64,000 bases of DNA from Sedimentisphaerales bacterium (lineage in GTDB: Bacteria; Planctomycetota; Phycisphaerae; Sedimentisphaerales; SM23-30): the NCBI GenBank assembly GCA_963663965.2, contig CAXXFK010000002.1:1-64000 (forward strand). Reading direction: 5' to 3'. Below the pieces are notes generated by a model. That model had not been told where the DNA came from. It was given only the letters and a program-made list of their open reading frames with translations, and did not search any database. Position 1 is the first letter of the stretch, and the number at the start of each line of letters is the position of its first letter. Positions 6,516 through 61,633 of this stretch are shown here, one piece after another. Both the position numbers and the translations under genes were made by a program.

Positions 6516-7403
6516 ATGAATCAGGTAGTATTACAAACCCGTATTCCCGGCCAGACGCCGCGTCGGGGTAAAGTACGCGATATTTATGATCTGGGCGACC
6601 AGTTACTTTTTGTTGCCACGGATCGTATCAGCGCCTTTGATGTGATTATGGCCAACGGCATTCCGGATAAGGGTAAAGTCCTGACCCGGATTTCCCTGTT
6701 CTGGTTCGAATGGCTGGGCGCTTCAATTAATAATCATCTGGTCACGACGGAGGTGAGCAAGTTCCCGGCGCCGTTCTGCGATTATGCCGACCAGTTGGAA
6801 GGCCGCAGTATGCTGGTCCGCAAGACCGAGGTGTTGCCGGTCGAATGTATTGTGCGGGGCTATCTGGCCGGTTCCGGCTGGAAAGAGTATCAGAAGAAAC
6901 AGACCGTCTGTGATATCCCGCTGCCGGCCGGACTCAAACAGTGCGACAAGCTCCCCGAACCGTTATTTACTCCATCGACCAAGGCCGAACAGGGTCTGCA
7001 CGATGAAAATATCTCGCCGGAGCGCGCCGCGGAAATTATCGGCAAAGAAAAAGCGGATTATGTCGCGCGGAAAAGCATCGAAATTTACCGCCGGGCGGCT
7101 GATTATGCCGCCGAACGTGGTATTATTCTGGCCGATACCAAATTTGAATGGGGACAGGAAGGCGAGAATATTGTCCTGATCGATGAAGTACTCACGCCCG
7201 ATTCTTCCCGGTTCTGGCCCGCGGCCAGGTATGAACCCGGCCGCGATCAGGAAAGCTTCGATAAACAATTTGTCCGGAACTATCTGGAAAGTATCAATTT
7301 TGCCAAGCAGCCGCCCGGCCCCGAACTGCCGGCCGAAGTCGTGGAAAATACCCGCGCTATCTATGTTCAGGCTTACGAACAGCTGAGCGGCAAAAAATTC
7401 TAA
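6516..7403 (+). CDS. purC: SAICAR synthetase
   Basis: GKVRDIY, TDRISAFD, ECIVRGYL, ADTKFE and DEVLTPDSSRFW motifs; ATG at 6516 after a GAGG RBS. Confidence 0.97.
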   Translation: MNQVVLQTRIPGQTPRRGKVRDIYDLGDQLLFVATDRISAFDVIMANGIPDKGKVLTRISLFWFEWLGASINNHLVTTEVSKFPAPFCDYADQLEGRSMLVRKTEVLPVECIVRGYLAGSGWKEYQKKQTVCDIPLPAGLKQCDKLPEPLFTPSTKAEQGLHDENISPERAAEIIGKEKADYVARKSIEIYRRAADYAAERGIILADTKFEWGQEGENIVLIDEVLTPDSSRFWPAARYEPGRDQESFDKQFVRNYLESINFAKQPPGPELPAEVVENTRAIYVQAYEQLSGKKF

Positions 7404-26301: not shown

Positions 26302-26563
26302 AATTGCCCTTCAAAACAGACTGGGATCATTATAACTATCGGACATTTATCAGGCAAGCTTTATATTTTCGGGAACTTGATATGAAAAGGCCCATTTTAG
26401 AATCTATCGGGATAGTTATAAAAAAAACTGTTTTTTCCGGTGTAAATCCGATAGAATTGAACGAATCGAAATTGTAAGATTTTAATTGAAAATATATTAT
26501 ATTTAATATGATAGCCATTTATAATAAAATAATGTACAGATTTGAGATAAAAAGTAAACAGGA

Positions 26564-26824
26564 ATGCCAATGATAGCAGTATTGATGGGACCGGGTGAAA
26601 TCGGCATTATTGTTATTATGGCGGTTTTGTTAACTATCCTGGTATTAAGAGACCGAAAATCCGTACAGCAGGCTATCGAGCATCGAAAAGCCAGTCAAAA
26701 GCCCCAGTCATTTCTGTCAATGCAGATAGTTATTGGTATTCTGGTTATCGTAGTGATCGTGTTATCATTGATCCTGGCCTGGGTGCTTAAACACTGGCAA
26801 AATCAGGACTCCAAACTTATTTAG
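26564..26824 (+). CDS. small two-TM hypothetical protein
   Basis: 86-aa ORF with two hydrophobic helices. Confidence 0.55.
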   Translation: MPMIAVLMGPGEIGIIVIMAVLLTILVLRDRKSVQQAIEHRKASQKPQSFLSMQIVIGILVIVVIVLSLILAWVLKHWQNQDSKLI

Positions 26825-26860
26825 AATTCTATCCGCTTTAGACCTAGTAATAAAAATTAT

Positions 26861-27511
26861 ATGAAGATAACAATTAATGATAATCCAATTGATCGTTCCT
26901 TTTCAGATAAAATGCATTTAGGTGATGTTCTCAATATAATACAGTCTGACATGGTTTCGTCTCAGGATGTTATCACGACTATTCATATTAATGGCCAGGA
27001 ATTACAAGCCGGACAATTAACCGAATGGCAAGACAGATTTCTTTGTGAGTTCAAGAGTATTAATATTGAGATTATGGCTAAAACGTTATTTGCCTCTTCG
27101 GGTTTGCGGATAATGGCAGGTCATTTGGAAGAAAGTGAGGCCTTACGTAATCAAGTGGTTGATGCCCTCGCACAGGGACAATCGCAAAAAGCGATGCAAC
27201 TGTTAAGCGATTATCTGCAACTCTGGGATATGGTCCAGAAGACATTGATCAGCGCATGTCATTTAATGGATGTGGATCTGGAAAATACAGATTTTGAAAT
27301 AGAAGGCATAAAAGTCTCCGAGGTGATTGCCAGATTGACAGAACAACTGGAACAAATAAAAATGACATTGGAGGCGGGAGATTCTGTGATGTTGGGCGAT
27401 ATTATGGATTATGAATTTGGAGAGATTTGCGAGGGCTGGTGTGTGGTCATGCATCAGTTGTCTGACCAGTTTGAGCAACGGGATGATTCCAGTCATTCTG
27501 ATTTTGAATAA
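26861..27511 (+). CDS. hypothetical protein
   Basis: 216-aa ORF; beta-rich N-terminus and helical C-terminus ending LGDIMDYE. Confidence 0.7.
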   Translation: MKITINDNPIDRSFSDKMHLGDVLNIIQSDMVSSQDVITTIHINGQELQAGQLTEWQDRFLCEFKSINIEIMAKTLFASSGLRIMAGHLEESEALRNQVVDALAQGQSQKAMQLLSDYLQLWDMVQKTLISACHLMDVDLENTDFEIEGIKVSEVIARLTEQLEQIKMTLEAGDSVMLGDIMDYEFGEICEGWCVVMHQLSDQFEQRDDSSHSDFE

Positions 27512-27891
27512 ATTTGACTTTGGGAATCTGGAATTATTTATAGATTATTAGGCCGATAATATTAATTACAGGTCTCATTCATAGTTGATATGATATCGCA
27601 TTAACGATATCGCGCAATCATCAAAAACCAAAGCTGATGGAGCTGAACGAACTCGACAAATGGTGATCGCATGCAGCATCTGGCGGAGCGCCTGAGAGGA
27701 TTAGTAAGCCCATTTAGGATTATCAATGTTACCGACCCGGTATAAGTCGCGTTAGAAAGCAACAAGGCAGGGAAAATGAGTATTACGGCGTCAGGAGGAG
27801 ATACACAGGAAACCGCCCGACAAACTACAGGGCCGTTGTCTGGGAAGAAGGTTCGACATCGCCATATTCACCCCGCGATACCGAGCCGTTT

Positions 27892-49330: not shown

Positions 49331-52300
49331 ATGAGTAAAAAAGATTTACCATCAAAAAATAAATATCGGGAAACTTTTTCAAAAAATCATCTGACTCAAG
49401 ATTCAAGAACTGTATATTTGAAATACGAATATCATATAGAGATCTGTTGTGATTTCGAGAGAGCAAAGCCGGATTACCATTATATAAAAATAGGAATATA
49501 TGATACTGCACGGCGAACACATATCAGGGAAACAATTATCATCAATTCGCATTTATCCTATGAAATAAAGACTTCCATTAAATCAACGGTAAAAAACAAA
49601 TGTGCTGTGTATGAGGATGTCAAACATTTTGCAGAGCTTATATATTTACTTAATCTTAAATACGATTATGATAGACTAATACGAGGATATAATTCAGATA
49701 ATGCCGGTTTTTTACATACCTGTGAAATATCAAAATTAAATGATGTAGAGAAAAAAACAAGAGTTGGGAAATCTTTGTATGTTACCTTAGGAAAGTTCAT
49801 AGTATCAAACCAAAAGGACAAAGCATGGAAGCTGTTAAATGATGTTTTTGTAAATCCTGACCAATTGTATCACTTGATTTGCTATATCGGTGTGAGTACT
49901 TTGAGAGAAAGAGAAAAAGAGGAAGCACAACTTCTCTGGTGGCTTAATATTAGTAAGGATGACAATATCTGTTTAAGATATTTGAACGGTGATAATATTG
50001 ATCGAAGTAGCGAGAGTTATAAAAGATTACTCAGCGGCATGTTTTCTTGTCTTGATGATGAATTAGAAAGTTTGCCGGAATTAATAAAAAATGCTGAAGA
50101 CAAAATAGGCACGTTAAACGGCACAGAAACCAATGTTGGCAAAAACACAATAAAAACATTTAAACATCATCTTAAAGCAATTGCTGAGGCTCATCTTCAG
50201 GAAAAGTTGCATGGTAAGGCTTGTATAAAATTTAGACTTGAAATTGGTGAATATGATAACGAAAATATAACTTCGATGAATTCAATCAGGCCAGGTAATG
50301 AGAGAGAGCGAAGATGGAAAGATTTAACCTGTGAAGACTTGGAAGATATCAATGGAATAAATGTTCTGAGTTCTGACGCAGGATGTGGTAAAACAACTTT
50401 ATTGAGAACGCTCCAGGTAGATATAATTGAGAGAACGGATTATATTCCCCTCTACTTAGAGGCTGCAGAAATAGTCAAATGGACATTTGATAAGTATGAC
50501 TATATGTCCTTTAAGGATAAATTATCTGAATACTATAAAGCTATCATTGAAAAGGATAAGATGGGTGATTTATTGGATAGCCACAAAGATAAACTGTATT
50601 TTATAATTGATGGCCTCGATCAAATCGAAGGAGTTGGTAGTGAATATGCAAATTTAGTAAATAGAATTATCAGCTTATTTCCAGATAAAGGAGAAAAAAG
50701 GATTATTATTGCCTCAAGACCCTTTGCCTTATCGGCCATCGAAACAAATGCACAAACTAGTCTGCTTAGACTGAAAAAGTTTAACGATAGTGATTTACTG
50801 GCATATTTTGGATGTAATTATGATATTGCAAAGAAGTTATGTCAGAGATGTATGGAATTGCTTTGCGTTCCCATGCTTGCATATATGGTAAGATATCTTA
50901 TCGAAAATAATGAGACTGAAAGCCTCAGCAATCGCACCGATATTTATCGAAGATATGTTAATTATATTCTCAATAATTCAAACCTAAGATACAGGCATGA
51001 TAATCTCAAAATATCTGACCAAACCAAAAGAGGCATACTGCGAGTCTTATCGGAGATTAGCTATAATGCAATAGCCCAAGAACGACCTTTATTTCAGGCA
51101 ATACCATTTGATATTGTAGATCGATGCTCAAAAGATAATGGTATTGTTACGGATGAATTATTTAAACTTGGTATGATAAATCAATTGGGTAATAATATCT
51201 ATTTTTGTCATCAGTCATTTCAGGAATATTTGGCTGCTGTTTATATTGCACTAGACGATTCACTGATTGATAAAGTTCTTCTTGAAAAATGGAATCCTAA
51301 GTGGGAAGAAACACTCAAATTTCTAACAGGAATAAAAGGGCAAGTAATTATCGATAAGATATTGGCTGAAAAGGATAACATTATTCATGCGAAGACATTT
51401 CAAGCAGCAAAATTTGTCCTAGAAACAGATGTAACCAAAGTATTCAAAGGAGAGATTATAAGTAAAGTTGAAGCTTTATTATGTATTCCTTTCTTTTCTG
51501 ATGATGCTTTAGGATGTTTAGCTTATATTGATTATGATAAAGCAATGGATAGCCTTAAATATCTAATCATGAATGACAATGACTGTCTGGGCATACCGTC
51601 TATAATTCAACAATTAAATGTAACTATCAGAGATGATATTACTGAAATATTGGCTGATAAACTCTCGTATAATAATTGTGAAAATGTTGATGTGCTATTA
51701 TTTATAATGGCAAAATTAAAAATTAAAATTAACCAATACATAATTAGTAAAATAATTGATGTAATTCCATTTGCTCATTATTTATCGTTTCATGAAATAG
51801 CATGCATATTACGAAAAGGTAATGGTGATTCAATAAATAGCATAGTAAAGCTATTAGGTAGTGTAAATTATCAAATAAGAGATGAGGCATTAAGTATCAT
51901 TAATGAACTTAAAGACAGAATTAATGAAGACTCATTGAAGATAATTATTTCTTACATAAGCAATGATGATGATGATATAGTCGAATCTGCAATTAGTGCC
52001 CTTGAAATAATAAATTATAATGTTAGTGATACTATCATTGAGACTATTATTGGATTGCTTGAAAAGAATAACGCTCAAATAATTCTATCTGTGTCAAGTA
52101 TTCTTGCTAAGGCAGAGATAAAATATCGCAAAAGAGCATCGCTTGTAATAATGAATTATATGGAATGTTCAAGCCTAATAATTCTCCAGGCATTAATTCG
52201 TGGTATAGGGATATTAAATATAAGTCTAGATAATAAAATACTAAATAAAATAGCCAATTATTTACATCATGAAAGTGGCGGTATTGTTCTTGAATCTCTA

Positions 52301-53338
52301 AAAATACTTAGCGCACAAAAAGAAAATATCAATACCCAGATTATAATTGAAATAATAAAATGCCTTGAACGGGCAGAGCCTAATGTTATTGAGGAAACAA
52401 TTAATATAATCCTATCCAGTGAAGAATTAATCACGGAAAAAGTGTATCTTGTATTAATAAGCACTATCAAGAATAATAATTCTCGTGTCAAAGGTATTAT
52501 TAAGAAAGTATTGTTGAGAATAAATGATGACACTGTTCTGAAAAAGCGTCTTCTCGATATACTTATTTCTATGAACCATGAGATTGCCGCAAATAGTATT
52601 AATTCTATAAATAAATATATTTATAAAGAAGATAATAATAATCTTGCAAATGTTATTAGTCTATTACAATCTGAGGATGAAGAAATTGTAATTACTTCAA
52701 TTGATACGCTATGCTCTCTCGGTATAAACATAGATAATGAGTGCCTTGAAAATCTTATTAGATTGTGTGATTCGGATAATCCTAGAATCGTTCTTAAAGC
52801 GGCTGAATACCTTAAAGACAAGAAATACAATATAAATGAATATGTCCTTAATAATATGACATGGGCATATGATGTCAATTCAATCTATAAAGTGATAAAT
52901 GGTGTTGAAGTGCTAATAGATATGAATATGAGCATTGATGTTAGAATCATAAAAAAAATGATAGAGGTGTTTATAGAAATGGATGAGAGTGCTCAGATTA
53001 CAATTATGCATGCAATCATAGATAATAAAACATCTTTAAGAAAGGACGACATAGAGTGTGTAATTAATATATTAAAGAAATGTCCTAATGAGTCAGTTAA
53101 ATATCTCTTAGATATACTAATTGGTTTAGTTGAAAATCTCGACGAGGATATGATAAATAAACTCGCCATGCAATTTAAAATGTTAACAGAAAAGGCCATA
53201 ACGCCTCAAATGTTGGGATTTCAATTCATCAAAAAATCTTTAAATGACTATCACGAAACATTATTACAATATTCCAGATATAAAGAGCTATGGTTATTAT
53301 TATATCAAAACGGTAAGCTTGAATCTTTGGCAGTATAA
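49331..53338 (+). CDS. NACHT (STAND) NTPase with C-terminal HEAT/ARM repeats and an unknown N-terminal domain
   Basis: AGCGKTT, FIIDGLDQ, IASRP, VPML, FCHQSFQEYLAA, W.ETLKFL; HEAT-like repeats; strongly AT-rich. Confidence 0.85.
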   Translation: MSKKDLPSKNKYRETFSKNHLTQDSRTVYLKYEYHIEICCDFERAKPDYHYIKIGIYDTARRTHIRETIIINSHLSYEIKTSIKSTVKNKCAVYEDVKHFAELIYLLNLKYDYDRLIRGYNSDNAGFLHTCEISKLNDVEKKTRVGKSLYVTLGKFIVSNQKDKAWKLLNDVFVNPDQLYHLICYIGVSTLREREKEEAQLLWWLNISKDDNICLRYLNGDNIDRSSESYKRLLSGMFSCLDDELESLPELIKNAEDKIGTLNGTETNVGKNTIKTFKHHLKAIAEAHLQEKLHGKACIKFRLEIGEYDNENITSMNSIRPGNERERRWKDLTCEDLEDINGINVLSSDAGCGKTTLLRTLQVDIIERTDYIPLYLEAAEIVKWTFDKYDYMSFKDKLSEYYKAIIEKDKMGDLLDSHKDKLYFIIDGLDQIEGVGSEYANLVNRIISLFPDKGEKRIIIASRPFALSAIETNAQTSLLRLKKFNDSDLLAYFGCNYDIAKKLCQRCMELLCVPMLAYMVRYLIENNETESLSNRTDIYRRYVNYILNNSNLRYRHDNLKISDQTKRGILRVLSEISYNAIAQERPLFQAIPFDIVDRCSKDNGIVTDELFKLGMINQLGNNIYFCHQSFQEYLAAVYIALDDSLIDKVLLEKWNPKWEETLKFLTGIKGQVIIDKILAEKDNIIHAKTFQAAKFVLETDVTKVFKGEIISKVEALLCIPFFSDDALGCLAYIDYDKAMDSLKYLIMNDNDCLGIPSIIQQLNVTIRDDITEILADKLSYNNCENVDVLLFIMAKLKIKINQYIISKIIDVIPFAHYLSFHEIACILRKGNGDSINSIVKLLGSVNYQIRDEALSIINELKDRINEDSLKIIISYISNDDDDIVESAISALEIINYNVSDTIIETIIGLLEKNNAQIILSVSSILAKAEIKYRKRASLVIMNYMECSSLIILQALIRGIGILNISLDNKILNKIANYLHHESGGIVLESLKILSAQKENINTQIIIEIIKCLERAEPNVIEETINIILSSEELITEKVYLVLISTIKNNNSRVKGIIKKVLLRINDDTVLKKRLLDILISMNHEIAANSINSINKYIYKEDNNNLANVISLLQSEDEEIVITSIDTLCSLGINIDNECLENLIRLCDSDNPRIVLKAAEYLKDKKYNINEYVLNNMTWAYDVNSIYKVINGVEVLIDMNMSIDVRIIKKMIEVFIEMDESAQITIMHAIIDNKTSLRKDDIECVINILKKCPNESVKYLLDILIGLVENLDEDMINKLAMQFKMLTEKAITPQMLGFQFIKKSLNDYHETLLQYSRYKELWLLLYQNGKLESLAV

Positions 53339-53648
53339 TTATGAGTGTACTATTGGCGAGCGCGAGTAAATAAAAAACTGATTATGATGGATTTTGGGAA
53401 TATGGTAAAATATTTTTCGGTAGCGCCATAAAACTGGCAAGGAGTTGCGAACGCTTGAGATGTACTTAAAAAGGGTTAGCGACAACATTGGCCCCGAGTC
53501 ATATGAGTATACCGGCTACGGTATACTGTGTCTTTCCGGCAAGGGTGCGTGAAATAATTTTGGGCGGGTGGTATCATCGGGGTCATCAGTCTGGATTCGC
53601 CTGAGGTTGGCGGAGGCTGAGGTAAAAATGTTCAATCGAGGATGGCCC

Positions 53649-54044
53649 ATGAACAAGCAAAACGCTGAATTACCGGCCGAATTGGCATCGGCCCTGGAGC
53701 AATTTACTCATTGGCGGGCAGAACATAAGCCTCCCACCCGGTTTCCTGACCAGTTATGGTCGCTGGCGGCCGAGCTGGCCAGCCGGCACGGCCATCACCG
53801 GGTCTGTCGGGTTTTGAAGCTGGACTATTACAGTCTGAAGAAGCGTCTGGAACCCGGCTCAGCCAACCCCAAGCAAAGTCAAGCCCCGGCCTTTGTCGAG
53901 TTTCTGCCGGATAAAACCAGCTCAACCCGTTCCTGCACCATTGAATGCGAGAGCGCCCGCGGCGACCGTATCCGCATCCATCTGGATGGCAGAGACCTTT
54001 CGGAGCTGAGAATATTCTGCTCAGCGCTCTGGAGCGGTCTTTGA
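53649..54044 (+). CDS. tnpA: IS66 TnpA-like accessory protein
   Basis: HTH-like FP..LW..A..L; AFVE; coupled to tnpB (TGATG). Confidence 0.75.
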   Translation: MNKQNAELPAELASALEQFTHWRAEHKPPTRFPDQLWSLAAELASRHGHHRVCRVLKLDYYSLKKRLEPGSANPKQSQAPAFVEFLPDKTSSTRSCTIECESARGDRIRIHLDGRDLSELRIFCSALWSGL

Positions 54045-54394
54045 TGATCCAGGTGACGCCCCAGATGCGGGTGCTGGTCGCGACCGGTCCGGTGGATTTC
54101 CGTAAAGGCATCGACGGTCTGGCCCGGCTGTGCCGGTCGGTCCTTCAGGAAGACCCGTTCAGCGGTGGTGTGTTTGTGTTTGGCAATCGCAGCCGCAAAG
54201 CCATCAAGATATTGGTCTACGACGGCCAGGGGTTCTGGATGTGCCAGAAGCGGCTGTCGCAGGGTCGGTTTCGTTTTTGGCCCGGCTCGCAGATGGCCGG
54301 CCAGCGACTGGAATCGTATCAGTTGTCCGTGTTGTTATCCGGCGGCGATCCCGATCAGGCCTGCGGGGCAAAACCCTGGCGGCGGATCCATTAA
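54044..54394 (+). CDS. tnpB: IS66 accessory protein TnpB
   Basis: PVDFRKGIDGL, DPFSG, YDGQGFW..KRL..GRF. Confidence 0.92.
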   Translation: MIQVTPQMRVLVATGPVDFRKGIDGLARLCRSVLQEDPFSGGVFVFGNRSRKAIKILVYDGQGFWMCQKRLSQGRFRFWPGSQMAGQRLESYQLSVLLSGGDPDQACGAKPWRRIH

Positions 54395-54427
54395 AGCCTG
54401 GCCCTGTTCCGGTCCGATAAGGTTGCC

Positions 54428-56071
54428 ATGGTCAAGTTGAATAAAATCAAAAAGCGACGACGCAGGCCGGCTCCAGCCCCGAAACCCGCTTCACCGGCCG
54501 AGCCGGTGATTGAGCTGGATATAGAAGAGTTGCAGGCGCTTCTTGAAAAAGCCAGAACCGAACCCTTGAGCGATGAGGATGCCACAAAGCTTGGCGCAGC
54601 CCTGGAGATGTTAGGCAACCTGGGCTCTGAGCTGGACAAGAAGAAGGTGTCGATCCAGCGTCTCAAGCAGATGTTGTTTGGTCAATCGACCGAGAAGACC
54701 GAGACTGTCTTTAAGGACAAGAAGGATGATGAGGGTCAGGATAAGCAAGCCAACCCAAAAGAGAAACCGCCCAAAAAGCCGGCCCCGGGTCATGGCCGTA
54801 ATGGCGCGGACTGTTATACCGGCGGGACCCGGACCGAGGTCAAGCATCCGGAGCTGAAAGCCGGCGATCCCTGTCCGGACTGTCAGAAAGGCACGGTCTA
54901 CCAACATTCCAAACCGGCCCGGCTGGTGCGGATCAGCGGTCATGCTCCTTTGCGGGCCGGGGTCTATGAACTGGAAAAGCTGCGGTGCCATCTGTGCGGC
55001 AAAGTCTTTACTGCGCCGGCTCCCCAGGGTGTGGGCGAAGACAAATACGATGCCGAATCGGCGGCGATGATCGCATTGTTGAAATACGGCAGTGGGGTTC
55101 CATTCAATCGCCTGGCGCGTCTGCAGGGGAATCTGGGCGTGCCCCTGCCGACATCAAACCAATGGGAGATCGTCCAGGAGGCATCCGATGACATTGATCC
55201 GGTTTACCGGGAGTTGATTCATCAGGCGGCGCAGGGCCAGGTGCTTCATAATGATGACACAACGATGAAGATCCTGAAATATCAGCCGCCTGAACCGGGC
55301 CGCAAAGGGATCTTTACCTCCGGGATCGTCTCGGTTCTGGAAGACAACCGGCGGATCGCGTTGTTCTTTACCGGCCAGAAGCATGCCGGGGAGAATCTGA
55401 TGGAGCTCTTACGCCATCGCGATGAGCGTCTGGATCAACCGGTGCAGATGTGCGATGCCCTGAGCCGGAACATGCCCGAGGGCATGAAGGTGATGGTGAG
55501 CAACTGTCTGGTGCATGGCCGGCGCGGTTTTGTGGAGGTGGCTGATAACTTCCCGGAAGAATGCCTGTTCGTACTGGAGACCTTGAAAACGGTCTATCAT
55601 AACGATGACCAGACCAAAGGCATGACCGATTCGGAACGGCTGGCCTGGCATCAGGCTCATAGCGGGCCGGTGATGGAAAAACTCTATAACTGGATGAATG
55701 AGCAGTTGGATCAGCACCAGGTGGAGCCCAACAGCACACTGGGCGGCGCGATCCGTTATATGATCAGGCACTGGGAGAAACTGACGCTGTTTTTACGCGA
55801 GCCGGGCGCTCCGCTGGACAATAATATTTGCGAACGGGCGTTGAAGAAGGCCATTCTGCACCGCAAGAACGCTTACTTCTACCAAACAGAGAACGGGGCC
55901 AGGGTGGGCGATCTTTATATGAGCCTGATTCATACCTGCGAACTGAACCAGGTCAATCCATTCGACTATCTGACCGAATTGCAGAAGAACAAAACCGCCA
56001 TCATCACCGAGCTGGCAAAATGGCTGCCCTGGAACTATCGGGACAATCTCCAGCCAGTCTCGCCAGACTGA
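54428..56071 (+). CDS. tnpC: IS66 transposase TnpC
   Basis: LFG.STEK, CPDC/CHLC, HNDDT, C.VH.RR.F, LDNN..ERAL, WLPWN. Confidence 0.95.
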   Translation: MVKLNKIKKRRRRPAPAPKPASPAEPVIELDIEELQALLEKARTEPLSDEDATKLGAALEMLGNLGSELDKKKVSIQRLKQMLFGQSTEKTETVFKDKKDDEGQDKQANPKEKPPKKPAPGHGRNGADCYTGGTRTEVKHPELKAGDPCPDCQKGTVYQHSKPARLVRISGHAPLRAGVYELEKLRCHLCGKVFTAPAPQGVGEDKYDAESAAMIALLKYGSGVPFNRLARLQGNLGVPLPTSNQWEIVQEASDDIDPVYRELIHQAAQGQVLHNDDTTMKILKYQPPEPGRKGIFTSGIVSVLEDNRRIALFFTGQKHAGENLMELLRHRDERLDQPVQMCDALSRNMPEGMKVMVSNCLVHGRRGFVEVADNFPEECLFVLETLKTVYHNDDQTKGMTDSERLAWHQAHSGPVMEKLYNWMNEQLDQHQVEPNSTLGGAIRYMIRHWEKLTLFLREPGAPLDNNICERALKKAILHRKNAYFYQTENGARVGDLYMSLIHTCELNQVNPFDYLTELQKNKTAIITELAKWLPWNYRDNLQPVSPD

Positions 56072-56454
56072 CGCCAGACTGATATCCCGCCGTATCCGGG
56101 ATTTTTTCGGGAATTTCAGATTTTTCACCCTTGCCGGAAGGACACGGTATACTTGTTGCGTTGACAGGGGAAGATGCGAGGGCATTGAGTTGTCAAGGGG
56201 CGGTCCAAACGGTCATGTTGAAGAATGTCTCATAGACCCTTTAAAGATGCCTACGAAAGGTGCTTTATAAGGCCAACAAGTTCAGCATGGTAGAGACAAA
56301 CAAGATTCTAACTCTTTGAGAACATGGCAATTCCCAGCGGAAATGGCCTATCGGCTCGGCTTGCATAGTCATAAGGTCAGCCGGTATGTACGGCTTGTAA
56401 GTGAGAAGGTAAATATGTTCGTATTGCCAAACAGATAAGGTAAAATATTTTTCG

Positions 56455-58390
56455 GTAGCGCCAGGTAACTGGCAAGGAGTAGCGGATGCAAGAGCCGTAC
56501 AATGAAGGTTTAGCAAACCACATTGGCCCCGAGTCATGTGGGCATACCGGTAACGGTATGCTTGAAGCGTTGACAGGGGAAGATGCGGGCTGGGTATTGA
56601 GCCGCGTAAGTTTGTACATTATAGAACGGAGTGCCGACGCTGTCGAAAATGTCGGAAGGCAACACCGGATGTCTTATTATCGCGAGAGACATTCCGGACT
56701 CCGCGCGGTCGAAGACCCCAGGCACGCATGGACACTTCTTGCACAGGAACTGGGAGATCCCTTGTTTGGCCTCAGGACACATTATCCTGTGGTCCGCACA
56801 GAAAATCCAATTGGAGTACTGCTGTGATGAACGAACAGGGGAAGTCGGACAGGCCCATAGTACCTAAGAAGTTCTCGAACAAAGAGGCTGGTTGCCATGC
56901 CTTGGCGGAGAGGATAGAGGGAAGGGGCCTGACCAAGGGCAATTCGTCTCTACTGCACAAGTGCCGGACACCGGGCCGGGAAAGCTTGCCAAACGCATTA
57001 GAACGAATACGACAGGCAGCCACCCGGGATAAACAGCTAAAGTTTACTTCCCTGTGGCATCATGTCTATCATGTCGACTACCTGAGAGAAGAATTCTATC
57101 GCATTAAGCGGCAGGCTTCCCCGGGTGTGGACGACCAGACATGGCAAGAGTATGAGGCCGGGTTAGAGAACAATCTCAATAGCCTGGCAGAACGACTGAG
57201 AAAGGGGGCATATCGGGCAAAACCGGTAAGGCGGGTATTCATCCCCAAACCGGATGGACGCCAGCGTCCCATTGGTATTACTACCATTGAGGATAAAATC
57301 GTCCAGCGTAGCACGACTACGGTATTGAACGCTATTTATGAGGCTGACTTCAAAGGCTTCTCCTATGGCTTTCGTCCCGGTCGCAGTGCTCACAACGCCT
57401 TAGATGCTCTCTATGTCGGCATACTCAAGCGTAAGATAAACTGGGTACTCGACGCTGACATCAGCGGCTTCTTTGATGCCATCGATCACGATTGGCTGAT
57501 TAGATTCGTCGAGCACCGAATCGGAGACCCGCGAGTAGTACGGCATATCAAGAAATGGTTGAATGCTGGAGTCGTGGAAGAAGACAAACTTCTGCAGATC
57601 AAGGAAGGCACCCCGCAAGGTGGGAGCATATCGCCATTGCTGGCGAATATCTACCTTCATTATGTATTTGATCTGTGGGCTGACCAATGGCGAAAGCGTA
57701 ACGCCAAAGGGCATATGATTATCGTTCGATATGCTGACGATATCGTTGTCGGATTCCAATATCAATCGGATGCCAATAGATTTCATACGGACCTGCAGAA
57801 TCGATTTGGCAAGTTCAAGTTGAAGCTTCATCCGGCCAAAACCCGGCTCATTCAGTTCGGCCGCTATGCGACAGAACGAAGGACTACTCAAGGTAAAGGC
57901 AAGCCTGAGACATTCGACTTTCTTGGCTTTACGCACATCTGTTCCAAGTCAAGTAAAGGTCGGTTTATGTTGCTCCGGTTGCCGATGAGAAAGCGGGTGC
58001 AGGCCAAGCTAAAGGAAATCAAGGAACAGCTAAAATACCGGCGCTATACCTCGATTCCGGAGATGGGCCAGTGGCTTCACTCTGTTATCAGCGGCTGGTA
58101 CCGATACTACGCCGTTCCTAATACATCTCGCTATCTTGGCACCTTTCGCCGTAGGGTCGCCTGGCTTTGGTTCAGAGCGTTAAGAAGACGCAGTCAACGA
58201 AGCCGCATGACCTGGAGGCGAATGTACCAACTGATAGCAAGATGGCTTCCGCAGCCTAAAATTCTGCATCCGTACCCCCAGGCACGCTTACAAGCTGCTC
58301 GTTATGACCCGAGGTAGGAGCCGTATGCGGTAGTTCCGCTCGTACGGATCTGTGCGGGGGGCTGGGAGTAATCCCAGTCCCTACCGCGAC
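56455..58390 (+). mobile_element. group II intron (RT-encoding, no endonuclease domain)
   Basis: 5' GTAGCGCCAG; EBS1-like CGAAAA loop at 56644; domain V GAGCCGTATGCGG...CGTACGGATC at 58318-58350; domain VI with bulged A; 3' end CGAC. Confidence 0.92.
56827..58317 (+). CDS. ltrA: group II intron reverse transcriptase/maturase
   Basis: IPKPDG.QRPIG, SYGFRP, GTPQGG.ISPLLANIYL, RYADD, FDFLGF, domain X. Exact start uncertain. Confidence 0.95.
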   Translation: MNEQGKSDRPIVPKKFSNKEAGCHALAERIEGRGLTKGNSSLLHKCRTPGRESLPNALERIRQAATRDKQLKFTSLWHHVYHVDYLREEFYRIKRQASPGVDDQTWQEYEAGLENNLNSLAERLRKGAYRAKPVRRVFIPKPDGRQRPIGITTIEDKIVQRSTTTVLNAIYEADFKGFSYGFRPGRSAHNALDALYVGILKRKINWVLDADISGFFDAIDHDWLIRFVEHRIGDPRVVRHIKKWLNAGVVEEDKLLQIKEGTPQGGSISPLLANIYLHYVFDLWADQWRKRNAKGHMIIVRYADDIVVGFQYQSDANRFHTDLQNRFGKFKLKLHPAKTRLIQFGRYATERRTTQGKGKPETFDFLGFTHICSKSSKGRFMLLRLPMRKRVQAKLKEIKEQLKYRRYTSIPEMGQWLHSVISGWYRYYAVPNTSRYLGTFRRRVAWLWFRALRRRSQRSRMTWRRMYQLIARWLPQPKILHPYPQARLQAARYDPR

Positions 58391-58480
58391 CACATATTAT
58401 AGGACACCGTAAAAACAGTCCTTCATCTGGTCGATGAAGTTTTTGAAATAGTAACCGAAAACCAAATGAAAGGACTGACT

Positions 58481-59722
58481 ATGAGTCAAACAGAAGAATC
58501 GACCAGTGACGTTAGGAACTTGAACCAAATTTTAAAAATCGACCAATCCCAGATGAAGGATCAGTTGGGCCAGATGGTGCGCCAGAGTGTGGAAGACACG
58601 CTCAATGCCCTGCTGGACGCCGAGGCGGACCAGCTCTGCAACGCCCAGCGTTATGAACATACCCAGGCCCGCACCGATACCCGGGCGGGCTATTATCCGC
58701 GTAAGTTTCATACGACGACCGGCGAAGTGAATTTGAAGATGCCCAAGCTGCGAAAAACGACCTTTGAAACCGCCATCATCGAGCGCTATAAACGCCGGGA
58801 GTCTTCGGTAGAAGAGGCCCTGATCGAGATGTATCTGGCCGGCGTTTCGGTCCGGCGTATCGAAGACATCGCCGAAAGCCTGTGGGGCGCCCGTGTCAGT
58901 GCGGGCACCATCAGCAATCTGAATCAGAAAGTCTATCAACAGATCGACCAATGGCGCAACCGCAAACTGGAAGGGTCGTATCCCTATGTCTATCTGGACG
59001 GCATCGTTTTGAAACGTTGCTGGGGCGGCGAAGTCAAGAATGTTTCGATTCTGGTGGCCATTGCCGTCGATCAGGAGGGCTATCGCGAAGTGCTGGGTTC
59101 CTGCGAGGGCGCCAAAGAGGATAAAGCCGGTTGGGGCGGTTTCTTACGCGATTTAAAGCGCCGCGGCCTGCAGGGCGTTCGCCTGTTTGTTTCCGACAAA
59201 TGCCTGGGTCTGGTGGACGCGCTGGCCGAGGTTTTTCCGGAGGCCGACTGGCAGCGCTGCACGGTCCACTGGTATCGCAACGTGTTCAGTCATGTGCCGC
59301 GCAAGAAGGTGCGAGAGGTAGCGGCCATGCTCAAGGCCATCCATGCCCAGGAAGACCGCCAGGCGGCGATCCAGAAGGCCGAGCAAGTGATTGTCAAATT
59401 GCGGGAGATGAAACTGGGCAAGGCCGCTGAATTGGTCCAGGAAAGCTATCTCGAAACACTCACTTACTATCAATATCCCGACAAGCACTGGCGGCAGTTG
59501 CGAACCAATAATCCACTGGAGCGGATCATGCGTGAGATTCGTCGTCGTACGCGCGTGGTGGGCAATTTCCCGGATGGTCACTCGGCCCTGATGCTGGCCA
59601 CGGCCCGCCTGAGACATATTGCCGGCACCCAATGGGGTACGAGGCGTTATTTGAATATGGATCATTTGTATGAGTTGGAGAAGGAGAAAAAAGCTGAAAA
59701 AGAGGAGGTGGTCATGGCATGA
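58481..59722 (+). CDS. IS256-family transposase
   Basis: EMYLAGVS.RR, YVYLDG, FVSD, QRCTVH, TNNPLER...EIRRR. Confidence 0.96.
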   Translation: MSQTEESTSDVRNLNQILKIDQSQMKDQLGQMVRQSVEDTLNALLDAEADQLCNAQRYEHTQARTDTRAGYYPRKFHTTTGEVNLKMPKLRKTTFETAIIERYKRRESSVEEALIEMYLAGVSVRRIEDIAESLWGARVSAGTISNLNQKVYQQIDQWRNRKLEGSYPYVYLDGIVLKRCWGGEVKNVSILVAIAVDQEGYREVLGSCEGAKEDKAGWGGFLRDLKRRGLQGVRLFVSDKCLGLVDALAEVFPEADWQRCTVHWYRNVFSHVPRKKVREVAAMLKAIHAQEDRQAAIQKAEQVIVKLREMKLGKAAELVQESYLETLTYYQYPDKHWRQLRTNNPLERIMREIRRRTRVVGNFPDGHSALMLATARLRHIAGTQWGTRRYLNMDHLYELEKEKKAEKEEVVMA

Positions 59723-60037
59723 TCGTCCGATAAATTTTTGCCTCCCCTCGGGGAGGCAGGGCAGGGAGTTGTCCCTCCCTCCTCCATTGAAAGACTCTAC
59801 CAGATGAAAGACTAATAAAAAATGTGCGAAAGATTCTTGACGCTACCGCCAAACAAGATGTGATTATTTCAAGACCGATTTGAATCGGTATTGCAAAAAT
59901 GTCTTTGTATTTGCATGGGAAAGAATTAATGCATAAAATGGCGGAAATCAGTGATCCGAAATTGAGCTGATATTAGTTGTGTGCAGGATTGAGTATCCGA
60001 GTATTGCTATTTGTAATGTATTATGAAATAAAGAGAT

Positions 60038-61633
60038 ATGAAAAAGTCCGGCGTGAAATCAATTTTAGTTTCGTGGTTGGGATATGCTGATTTAAAGGGC
60101 ATGGCGTCATCATTGCCTCAGAAAATGCAAGCCGAAATTGCCCAGATTACTAAGCATAAGGGGGATTGGCCTACTGGTGGGATGGGGCCGGTTCAGACTT
60201 GTATTGGGCAGATGGCTTTTAAGAAGGTATATCTCCTAAGTAATTTTCCTGCAACCATTAACAGTCAATGTGCCAAGCATTATGGTCCGCAGGTTGAGAT
60301 TATTCCGGTGACTTTGGAAAATCCAACTGATTACAAATCGATTTACCAAATTTCCCTAGATGCACTCCAGGCTATTACACAACGGGAATCGAAGTCTCCA
60401 CTTGAACTGTCAATGCTGTTGAGTCCCGGCACGCCGGCCATGATCGCGATTTGGATTCTGCTGGGTAAGACAAAATTCCCGGCTCGATTCTATCAAACCT
60501 TCGATGGGAAAGTTTGGGAAACAGAAATCCCGTTCGATCTGACTCTGGATGTAGTTCCGGATCTGATGAAGGGGAGTGATGCGCTTTTTCAGCACCTTGC
60601 TTTACAAAGTCCGCAGGAAATCCCCGGCTTTGAGTCCATAATCGGTGAAAGTTATGTCATAAAAATGGCGGTTGGACGGGCCAAAAAGGCGGCTATTCGC
60701 AATGTTTCGGTATTGATTTCGGGTGAGAGCGGGACTGGAAAAGAGATGTTTGCACGAGCCATTCACCTTGCCAGTCCACGCCGTGACAAGCTTTTTGAGG
60801 CGGTCAATTGTGCTGCGCTGCCCACCGCATTGCTGGAATCGCAGCTATTTGGGCATAAAAAAGGAGCGTTTACCGGGGCAGACAAGGATCATATTGGGTT
60901 ATTGAAGTCTCTGGATGGCGGAACCCTTTTTCTTGATGAGATCGGTGAAAGCGAACTGGTTTTTCAGGCGAAATTACTGCGCGCCTTACAGCCGCCGGCT
61001 GGGTATTCAGCCACCATACGGGAGTTTTTCCCGGTTGGGGCGGTCAAGCCGGTACGCAGCGATGTCCGGATCATTGCAGCCACCAACAAGAATCTGCTGG
61101 AGGCGATCAAGCAGGGAGCTTTCCGGGATGACCTGTATTATCGTCTGGCGGCATTAACGATCAAATTGCCGCCGCTGAGGGATCGTCAGGCTGATATTGT
61201 GATGATGGCGGAACAGTTTCTTAAGCAGATTAATGCCGAGTTTCAGGCCCTTGACCCGGGGTATAAACAAAAAAATATTTCTCCTTCCACAAAAATATTT
61301 GTGAAAAACCATCCCTGGCCGGGCAATGTCCGGCAACTTTACAATGTTCTTTTACAAGCGGTAATCTTGTCTGACAGAGATACCATCCAAAAAGAGGATT
61401 TAATTGGGGCTTTGGCTGAGATGCCGGAAGCTGAATCCGATACCGGGTTGTTGGACCATCCTTTGGGAGAATCGTTCAGCTTGAAAAAAGTGATGTCCGA
61501 ATTGGAAGTCCATTATTTGCAAAGAGCTATGAAAGAGGCGGGGGGCAAGAAAACCCTGGCGGCCAAGTTATTGGGAATGGATAATTACCAGGCGCTGGAT
61601 GCCAAACTGAAACGGTTAAATATCCAATACTAA
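60038..61633 (+). CDS. sigma54-dependent activator with an RtcR/CARF-like N-terminal domain
   Basis: N-terminal VSWLG..DL, NPTDY..IY, LSPGTPAM; AAA+ GESGTGKE, GAFTGA, FLDEIG, FRDDLYYRL, WPGNVRQL; C-terminal Fis-type HTH. Confidence 0.9.
   Translation: MKKSGVKSILVSWLGYADLKGMASSLPQKMQAEIAQITKHKGDWPTGGMGPVQTCIGQMAFKKVYLLSNFPATINSQCAKHYGPQVEIIPVTLENPTDYKSIYQISLDALQAITQRESKSPLELSMLLSPGTPAMIAIWILLGKTKFPARFYQTFDGKVWETEIPFDLTLDVVPDLMKGSDALFQHLALQSPQEIPGFESIIGESYVIKMAVGRAKKAAIRNVSVLISGESGTGKEMFARAIHLASPRRDKLFEAVNCAALPTALLESQLFGHKKGAFTGADKDHIGLLKSLDGGTLFLDEIGESELVFQAKLLRALQPPAGYSATIREFFPVGAVKPVRSDVRIIAATNKNLLEAIKQGAFRDDLYYRLAALTIKLPPLRDRQADIVMMAEQFLKQINAEFQALDPGYKQKNISPSTKIFVKNHPWPGNVRQLYNVLLQAVILSDRDTIQKEDLIGALAEMPEAESDTGLLDHPLGESFSLKKVMSELEVHYLQRAMKEAGGKKTLAAKLLGMDNYQALDAKLKRLNIQY

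Follow-up and report, generated by a model that had tools for sequence, protein, structure and literature searches.

A group II intron at the terminal inverted repeats of an IS256-family element in a Sedimentisphaerales bacterium

A 64,000-nucleotide stretch of contig CAXXFK010000002.1 from a Sedimentisphaerales bacterium (Planctomycetota; assembly GCA_963663965.2), referred to here as the window, carries an insertion sequence (IS) of the IS256 family whose left terminal inverted repeat is split by a group II intron. The genome holds six copies of this 1478-bp IS256 and five full copies of the 1936-nt intron (one being 1937 nt long), and every intron lies between TTTCG and CACAT, 21 bp from the tip of the IS, in the left repeat of two copies and in the right repeat of three. 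Very likely, a class-E-like intron devoid of an endonuclease homes to the repeat on the exposed strand after the IS has moved, and it probably disables the end that it enters.

Occupancy of the IS256 ends and recognition of the target

In the window copy (C2) and in C21, the intron sits in the left repeat and runs in the direction of the transposase; in C6, C25, and C28, it sits in the right repeat and runs opposite to the transposase. C13, empty at both ends, is the sole vacant copy of the six. The window copy itself retains a vacant target in its right repeat, the very target that is filled in C6, C25, and C28. The original prediction held that excision of the intron would restore a left end that agrees with the right end at 19 of 26 positions. 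This was borne out: the junction boundaries cannot slide, and a genome-wide check found intron-free left ends at C6, C13, C25, and C28 which are exactly the rejoined left end of the window copy. The 8-bp duplication GCCAAACA does border the whole unit, and matching duplications, each different, were found at five of the six units, which along with the imperfect termini (19/26) agrees with the IS256 family.

The 8-mer TTTCGCAC occurs 156 times in the genome, and target choice therefore needs more than exon-binding site 1 (EBS1) of the intron; that all five full introns share one IS position despite these sites excludes chance placement. Homing to the IS ends rather than to the transposase gene, as originally proposed, is supported and extends to both ends, here and in relatives. 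Avoidance of double occupancy was also considered and set aside: none of the six copies is filled at both ends, but this would arise by chance in 24% of cases (hand calculation). At a re-examined locus with convergent copies of RmInt2, the Sinorhizobium meliloti intron compared below, one ISRm17 element is apparently filled at both ends.

The transposase belongs to the Mutator-type IS256 family, as judged from NF033543 (367 bits against a cut-off of 150) and PF00872. The intron matched RF02005 of Rfam at 56491-56718 (182.7 bits), and domains V and VI matched RF00029 with 38 bits, 2 bits below the gathering score of 40 (E 7e-5). The intron open reading frame (ORF) encodes a group II reverse transcriptase (RT)/maturase (TIGR04416, 375 bits against a cut-off of 300; PF00078 also matched), and a profile search of this ORF detected no endonuclease domain. 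The 3' end, AC, agrees with the AY boundary of group II introns. The 5' end departs from GUGYG, being read as GTAGCG, one base longer than usual, because the empty alleles fix the boundaries at 56455 and 58390. Relatives begin with GATGCG, GAAGCG, or GTTGCG, and a GNNGCG-type 5' end is, from these sequences, a lineage variant. Deviating boundaries are already known for group II introns (PMC7923331, PMC4424553).

Relatives were surveyed in 301 genomes of the order and, using an intron-internal pattern, in 401 genomes of the phylum and in metagenomes. Close relatives of the intron protein were found in two of the 301 order genomes, with 79% and 67% protein identity. In genome G056, two of the three copies occupy a 69%-identical IS256 bordered by clean duplications, at 21 bp from its left tip, and the single copy in G162 lies 21 bp inside the right end. 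The phylum search added G006, with one copy behind a right-type tip, and five looser pattern matches, none of them at IS tips. The pattern further yielded 15 metagenome loci, not all independent (L124 is the same as L128, and L126, L127, L129, and L130 are one variant), 13 of which show a left- or right-type tip. A tip was defined by agreement at no fewer than 12 of the 16 outer bases, the background being 0.07% of 9569 genomic TTTCG sites; the fit of L118 was made by eye with a one-base gap, and L123, a more distant intron with another EBS1, gave no tip fit. That the tips are IS256 ends is shown by G066, where all three intron-free IS copies carry the same tips followed by CACA.

Among more distant relatives, 18 loci from the class, none of the 16 that could be scored lies at an IS256 tip; among 78 distant loci, where a loose junction pattern found some of the intron ends, a weak IS256-type match lies nearby only at L003, and no IS256-like tips were seen by eye. 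In a quick tree (8 duplicate rows dropped; no class F or G references included), the five proteins targeting inverted repeats for which enough sequence was available form one clade, with a support of 96 in the Shimodaira–Hasegawa-like approximate likelihood-ratio test (SH-aLRT). By this comparison, the IS256-end target appears as a property of the intron clade, kept across two families of one order.

The EBS1 loop CGAAAA is, as predicted, complementary to TTTTCG of the exon (intron-binding site 1, IBS1), and the pairing is backed by compensatory changes in relatives: CGAAAC/GTTTCG in G056, GCATGG/CCATGC in L123, and CGAGGA/TCCTCG in L133. For the second loop, a register scan of 56611-56619 gave the best fit with the first base facing exon position -9 (49 of 70 Watson-Crick pairs versus 27 for the next-best offset), and the partner-shuffling permutation p was 0.007 among nine variants which are related and non-independent. 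A shifted EBS2, pairing at exon -9 to -17, is proposed from these alignments. The usual IBS2 lies closer to the splice site. In left ends, the -10-like hexamer (TATAAT, TACAAT, or TAAAAT; bp 8-13) falls within the shifted span, and in right ends the -35-like hexamer does. A candidate EBS3 G is invariant (12/12) and exon +1 is C in nine cases, T in two, and A in one, hence there is no co-variation signal; the G probably reads C at bp 22. The transposase of the related ISCth4 contacts bp 14-25 through its N-terminal domain, and in that element -10 and -35 hexamers form the promoter of the circle junction (PMC7780238). By analogy, the intron would read the least mutable bases of the IS and split its subterminal transposase-binding site.

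Several loci among the relatives show arrangements of their own. At L120, a right-type tip precedes the intron (3998) and a left-type IS interior follows it (5933; intron-strand positions), the contig ending there, which may record recombination between introns at opposite ends. L118 has, by eye, a second sequence like an IS256 right end some 30 nt after the intron start, as though the intron had received an IS copy. At L111 of G056 (6750-6940), one occupied IS is nested within a left end that belongs to another copy of this IS, is truncated, and has no intron. In genomes of family f87, sister introns (L133, L134, L135, and L138) insert after a common TTCGAGTCCTCG-like motif, with a matching EBS1 in L133; we take this motif to resemble the T-arm of a tRNA.

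Order of events, choice of strand, and rival explanations

Each of the five introns occupies the strand that is richer in G in its flanks (skew +0.07 to +0.13; chance 1/32), and the orientation of the IS is mixed, two one way and four the other; the end that is filled can therefore be told from the orientation of the IS. Over 1936 nt, the three introns at right ends show no difference, and their IS bodies vary at six sites (p ~0.007 under equal rates); G056 has three introns with no difference between them and two full IS bodies that differ at eight sites (p ~0.001, again under equal rates). Because the introns are identical where the IS bodies differ, we conclude that they homed in after transposition of the IS. 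Outside this genome, local skew was positive at 13 of 15 sites, which are related to one another and have short flanks (at least 1 kb of upstream flank was required; L128 was dropped as a duplicate, and L118, L126, and L131 lacked such a flank).

In the mechanism that we propose, a class-E-like group IIB intron has its homing site in the core of the IS256 terminal repeat, which is conserved, with EBS1 pairing with bp 16-21 of the repeat and the second loop with about bp 5-13. As the site occurs twice per IS in opposite directions, one end would always lie on the strand that the intron prefers; this is most likely the template of lagging-strand synthesis at the replication fork, where priming is presumed to take place. 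An IS facing one way would then be entered at the left end and an IS facing the other way at the right end, the intron arriving after transposition. The insertion splits bp 14-25, the subterminal transposase-binding site in ISCth4. Of this account, the positions, the use of both ends, the strand bias, the order of events, and the co-variation of the binding sites are shown by the sequences. Occupied ends are probably disabled because RNA splicing, which the intron presumably undergoes, cannot mend a DNA site. The transposase gene is intact and could still serve an empty copy. On the analogy of ISCth4, the IS is likely immobilised, but this may be incomplete because integration in vitro persists for ISCth4 junctions that have a single short repeat (PMC7780238).

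The integration of such junctions weighs against this account, and so do a number of other points. C28 has no matching duplication. L110 of G056 has an IS-type 3' exon, but its 5' flank is not an IS tip (8/16); although unrelated to the tip, that flank still pairs with EBS1. The fit of EBS2 in the host genome is partial, at 6/9 on the left and 7/9 on the right (by hand). Apart from their partial redundancy, most metagenome loci give the 5' junction only, with a downstream transposase match just at L124/L128. Two of the 15 outside sites have negative skew, and the chromosome-scale skew of G056 (20 stretches of 20 kb) is noisy and uninformative on the direction of replication. The IS differences are mosaic rather than tree-like, gene conversion or assembly polishing could distort the counts, and selection may be stronger on the intron than on the IS.

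Lastly, the long ORFs upstream run with the intron at all five sites in this genome, and the strand bias is therefore inseparable from transcription. Targeting could thus be real and the strand chosen by read-through, or by single-stranded DNA at transcription bubbles, instead of by the replication fork, the more so as splicing of the intron would need an outside promoter reading through the 21-nt exon. Against this stand the fork-orientation bias of the endonuclease-less RmInt1 and RmInt2 on plasmids (PMC4615759, PMC5894124) and the nearest upstream element at C6, an IS3 running the other way. We regard this alternative, which alters just one step of the favoured mechanism, as rather unlikely.

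The original prediction also allowed that the intron rides the IS as a composite element. An occupied IS would keep transposing, with the intact end as donor and the 21-bp stub as recipient, from one left-end founder and one right-end founder. Clean 8-bp duplications do surround the whole occupied unit in four of five cases here and in two in G056; in G056, both full IS copies have a filled left end; one variant occurs at three metagenome sites with differing flanks, each of them left-type; and in ISCth4 a junction retaining just 14 bp of one repeat can integrate (PMC7780238). Such duplications are expected whichever order the events took. Jumps of a composite should randomise the strand, yet all five introns are on the G-rich one, and in two genomes the introns vary less than the IS bodies do. 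Both the strand bias and the way in which the differences are distributed speak instead for separate homing into resident IS copies, and joint spread from two founders is judged improbable.

It is likewise improbable that the intron-split IS256 is a working composite whose second end is either the 21-bp stub or the junction of exon G with GTAGCG, the intact end being the donor. That junction agrees with the right tip of its own IS at 13 of 17 bases (10/17 in G056 and 6/17 in G162). Mimicry of the IS tip by the intron 5' end was treated as probably due to chance, and is doubtful because GNNGCG-type starts are shared by introns whose targets are not IS ends. Were the composite to work, a DNA transposon would carry a retroelement inside its own terminal repeat, the intron would have two routes of spread, and L110, with intron and IS interior beside a non-IS flank, would be such a product.

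An origin of the left and right arrangements in misassembly, or in recombination between repeats, is scarcely credible: the IS haplotypes are mosaic, one copy lacks a duplication, and at L120 the tip is of the right type and the interior of the left type, but the same junctions recur in the genomes of three relatives and on distinct contigs from metagenomes, and contigs of the sequencing runs X1 and X2, which may be the source sample and so are not independent, hold the empty 56454-58391 junction, X1 also joining the flank to the intron start.

The locus and its surroundings

The features of the window copy and of the adjoining relics are collected in Table 1. The subterminal inverted repeat noted originally is present and extends over 18 nt (89%).

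Table 1. Coordinates of the intron-split IS256 copy and of neighbouring relics in the window
Feature	Positions	Strand	Remarks
Relic: left-repeat-like 21-mer and 5' part of an 80%-identical sister intron, same junction	53399..53527	+	Older
IS66-family element splitting the relic intron	53528-56145		8-bp duplication GGTATACT; ends read from sequence
Continuation of the relic intron past IS66	56154..56200	+	End approximate
Left 8-bp target-site duplication GCCAAACA	56426..56433	unstranded	From sequence
5' exon, outer 21 bp of the IS256 left terminal inverted repeat	56434..56454	+	Contains IBS1, proposed IBS2, and -10-like TAAAAT
Proposed IBS2	56438-56446	+	In 5' exon
-10-like TAAAAT	56441-56446	+	Left IS end; -10 role presumed from ISCth4
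IBS1	56449-56454	+	In 5' exon
Group II intron, 1936 nt	56455..58390	+	5' end GTAGCG (non-canonical), 3' end AC
Proposed EBS2 TTTGTACAT	56611..56619	+	Pairs with exon -9 to -17; register scan
CCGAC/GTCGG stem around EBS1	56634-56655		Present in predicted fold
EBS1 loop CGAAAA in Id3	56644..56649	+	Co-variation with exons across relatives
Intron-encoded RT/maturase open frame	56728..58317	+	YADD present; open-frame limits, start codon provisional
Domains V and VI, bulged A at 58383	58316..58390	+	RF00029 match; bulge read from sequence
Start of 3' exon, inner 5 bp of the left repeat, CACAT	58391..58395	+	
Left subterminal inverted repeat	58417..58434	unstranded	Partner 59796-59813
IS256-family transposase, 418 amino acids	58466..59722	+	Intact
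Right subterminal inverted repeat	59796..59813	unstranded	Partner 58417-58434
Right terminal inverted repeat with empty intron target	59822..59847	-	Target between 59827 and 59826, - strand
Outward -35-like TTGACG in the right terminal repeat	59837-59842	+	
Right 8-bp target-site duplication GCCAAACA	59848..59855	unstranded	

Two features set the window copy apart or lie within its intron. A private 12-base block at 58449-58460, upstream of the transposase, is found neither in the other five copies nor in the sequencing-run contigs. An 11/12 match to the sigma-70 consensus (TCGACA-17-TATAAT; 56618-56646, - strand) lies in domain I and is directed outward through the IS tip, its -10 part not being conserved in relatives. 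In C21, a one-base insertion at intron position 1804 shifts the frame near the end of the RT gene and could be a sequencing error. A 1322-bp IS3-family element (~26464-27786) separates the left end of this left-occupied copy from its transposase gene; it has seven matches in the genome, and one copy adjoins the C6 unit.

In a nest of mobile elements, the relic intron split by the IS66 element is followed by a decayed IS21-like start at 56214-56392, 72% identical to IS21 copies on C6, C33, and C40, the ORF on C33 being IS21, and the window IS256, which lies just past this match, probably sits within the same IS21-like relic. The neighbouring genes encode a 1335-amino-acid NACHT and HEAT-repeat protein in AT-rich DNA (49331-53338) and, with a score under the family cut-off, a sigma-54 activator resembling RtcR (60038-61633); both are possibly part of a defence island.

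Comparison with known systems and implications

The IS-end strategy itself has already been published. RmInt2 occupies the left and right repeats of ISRm17 in S. meliloti GR4, which, according to its authors, ensures one lagging-strand site (PMC4615759, PMC5894124), and its targeting logic was demonstrated experimentally (PMC4615759). The present intron works like RmInt2 and belongs to a different class. Both are endonuclease-less group IIB introns with all copies in the terminal repeats of one IS, at both ends, with a lagging-template bias (probable for the present intron) and relaxed EBS2 pairing. RmInt2, in contrast, is a class D intron with a GTGTG 5' end and 33% protein identity to the present intron, and it inserts after a 16-nt stretch common to its seven copies, its host ISRm17 being of the ISNCY family (NCBIfam), not IS256. 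The intron described here starts with GTAGCG, inserts between bp 21 and 22, and has its proposed EBS2 pairing at -9 to -17. It therefore differs in being class-E-like, in its IS256 target, in its GNNGCG 5' end, and in cutting within a probable transposase-binding site. In the quick tree, its clade is apart from the class D RmInt1 and RmInt2 (SH-aLRT 96) and is grouped with one class E reference on a long branch (SH-aLRT 83). The closest named relative compared, with 44-51% identity, a place in the same clade of the tree (SH-aLRT 83), and likewise no endonuclease domain, is S.me.I4, a disrupted class E intron of pRmeGR4b whose identity was assigned by elimination from the text of PMC5894124. 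The IS256 beside S.me.I4 was considered as an intron target and rejected, since by eye it seems to be inserted into the 5' part of S.me.I4.

The site of RmInt1 lies in the transposase coding region of ISRm2011-2; there, splicing could in principle restore the message, and a split DNA end is beyond repair. RmInt1 likewise lives on an IS, whose spread it was proposed to limit, with one site per IS as against two in the IS256 here (PMC5894124). ISCth4 shares with this IS256 its ~26-bp functional repeats, 8-bp duplications, a -35 in the right end, and a -10 (TAAAAT) in the left end (PMC7780238); the part of that paper drawn on mentions no intron, and the transposase-binding site is assigned here by family analogy. 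As in IStrons, an intron is physically joined to an IS, but IStrons are group I intron-IS fusions moving as a unit (PMC4227781), and here a group II retroelement invades an IS. No sign of such joint movement was found, and the indirect tests of strand and of the distribution of differences point against it. Among the titles and abstracts searched, most subscription journals being outside the coverage, no group II intron in IS256 terminal repeats was described.

Here, homing to IS ends has arisen independently in a second class of introns. With six near-identical targets and an orientation that predicts the filled end, one genome offers a natural test of the strategy. The transposase-binding core and the split promoter boxes, which the intron would read, are probably sequences that the IS is not free to alter, and this makes the throttling of IS spread by an intron directly testable. 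The extra 5' base and the shifted EBS2 also bear on the annotation of intron boundaries and on the rules for retargeting.

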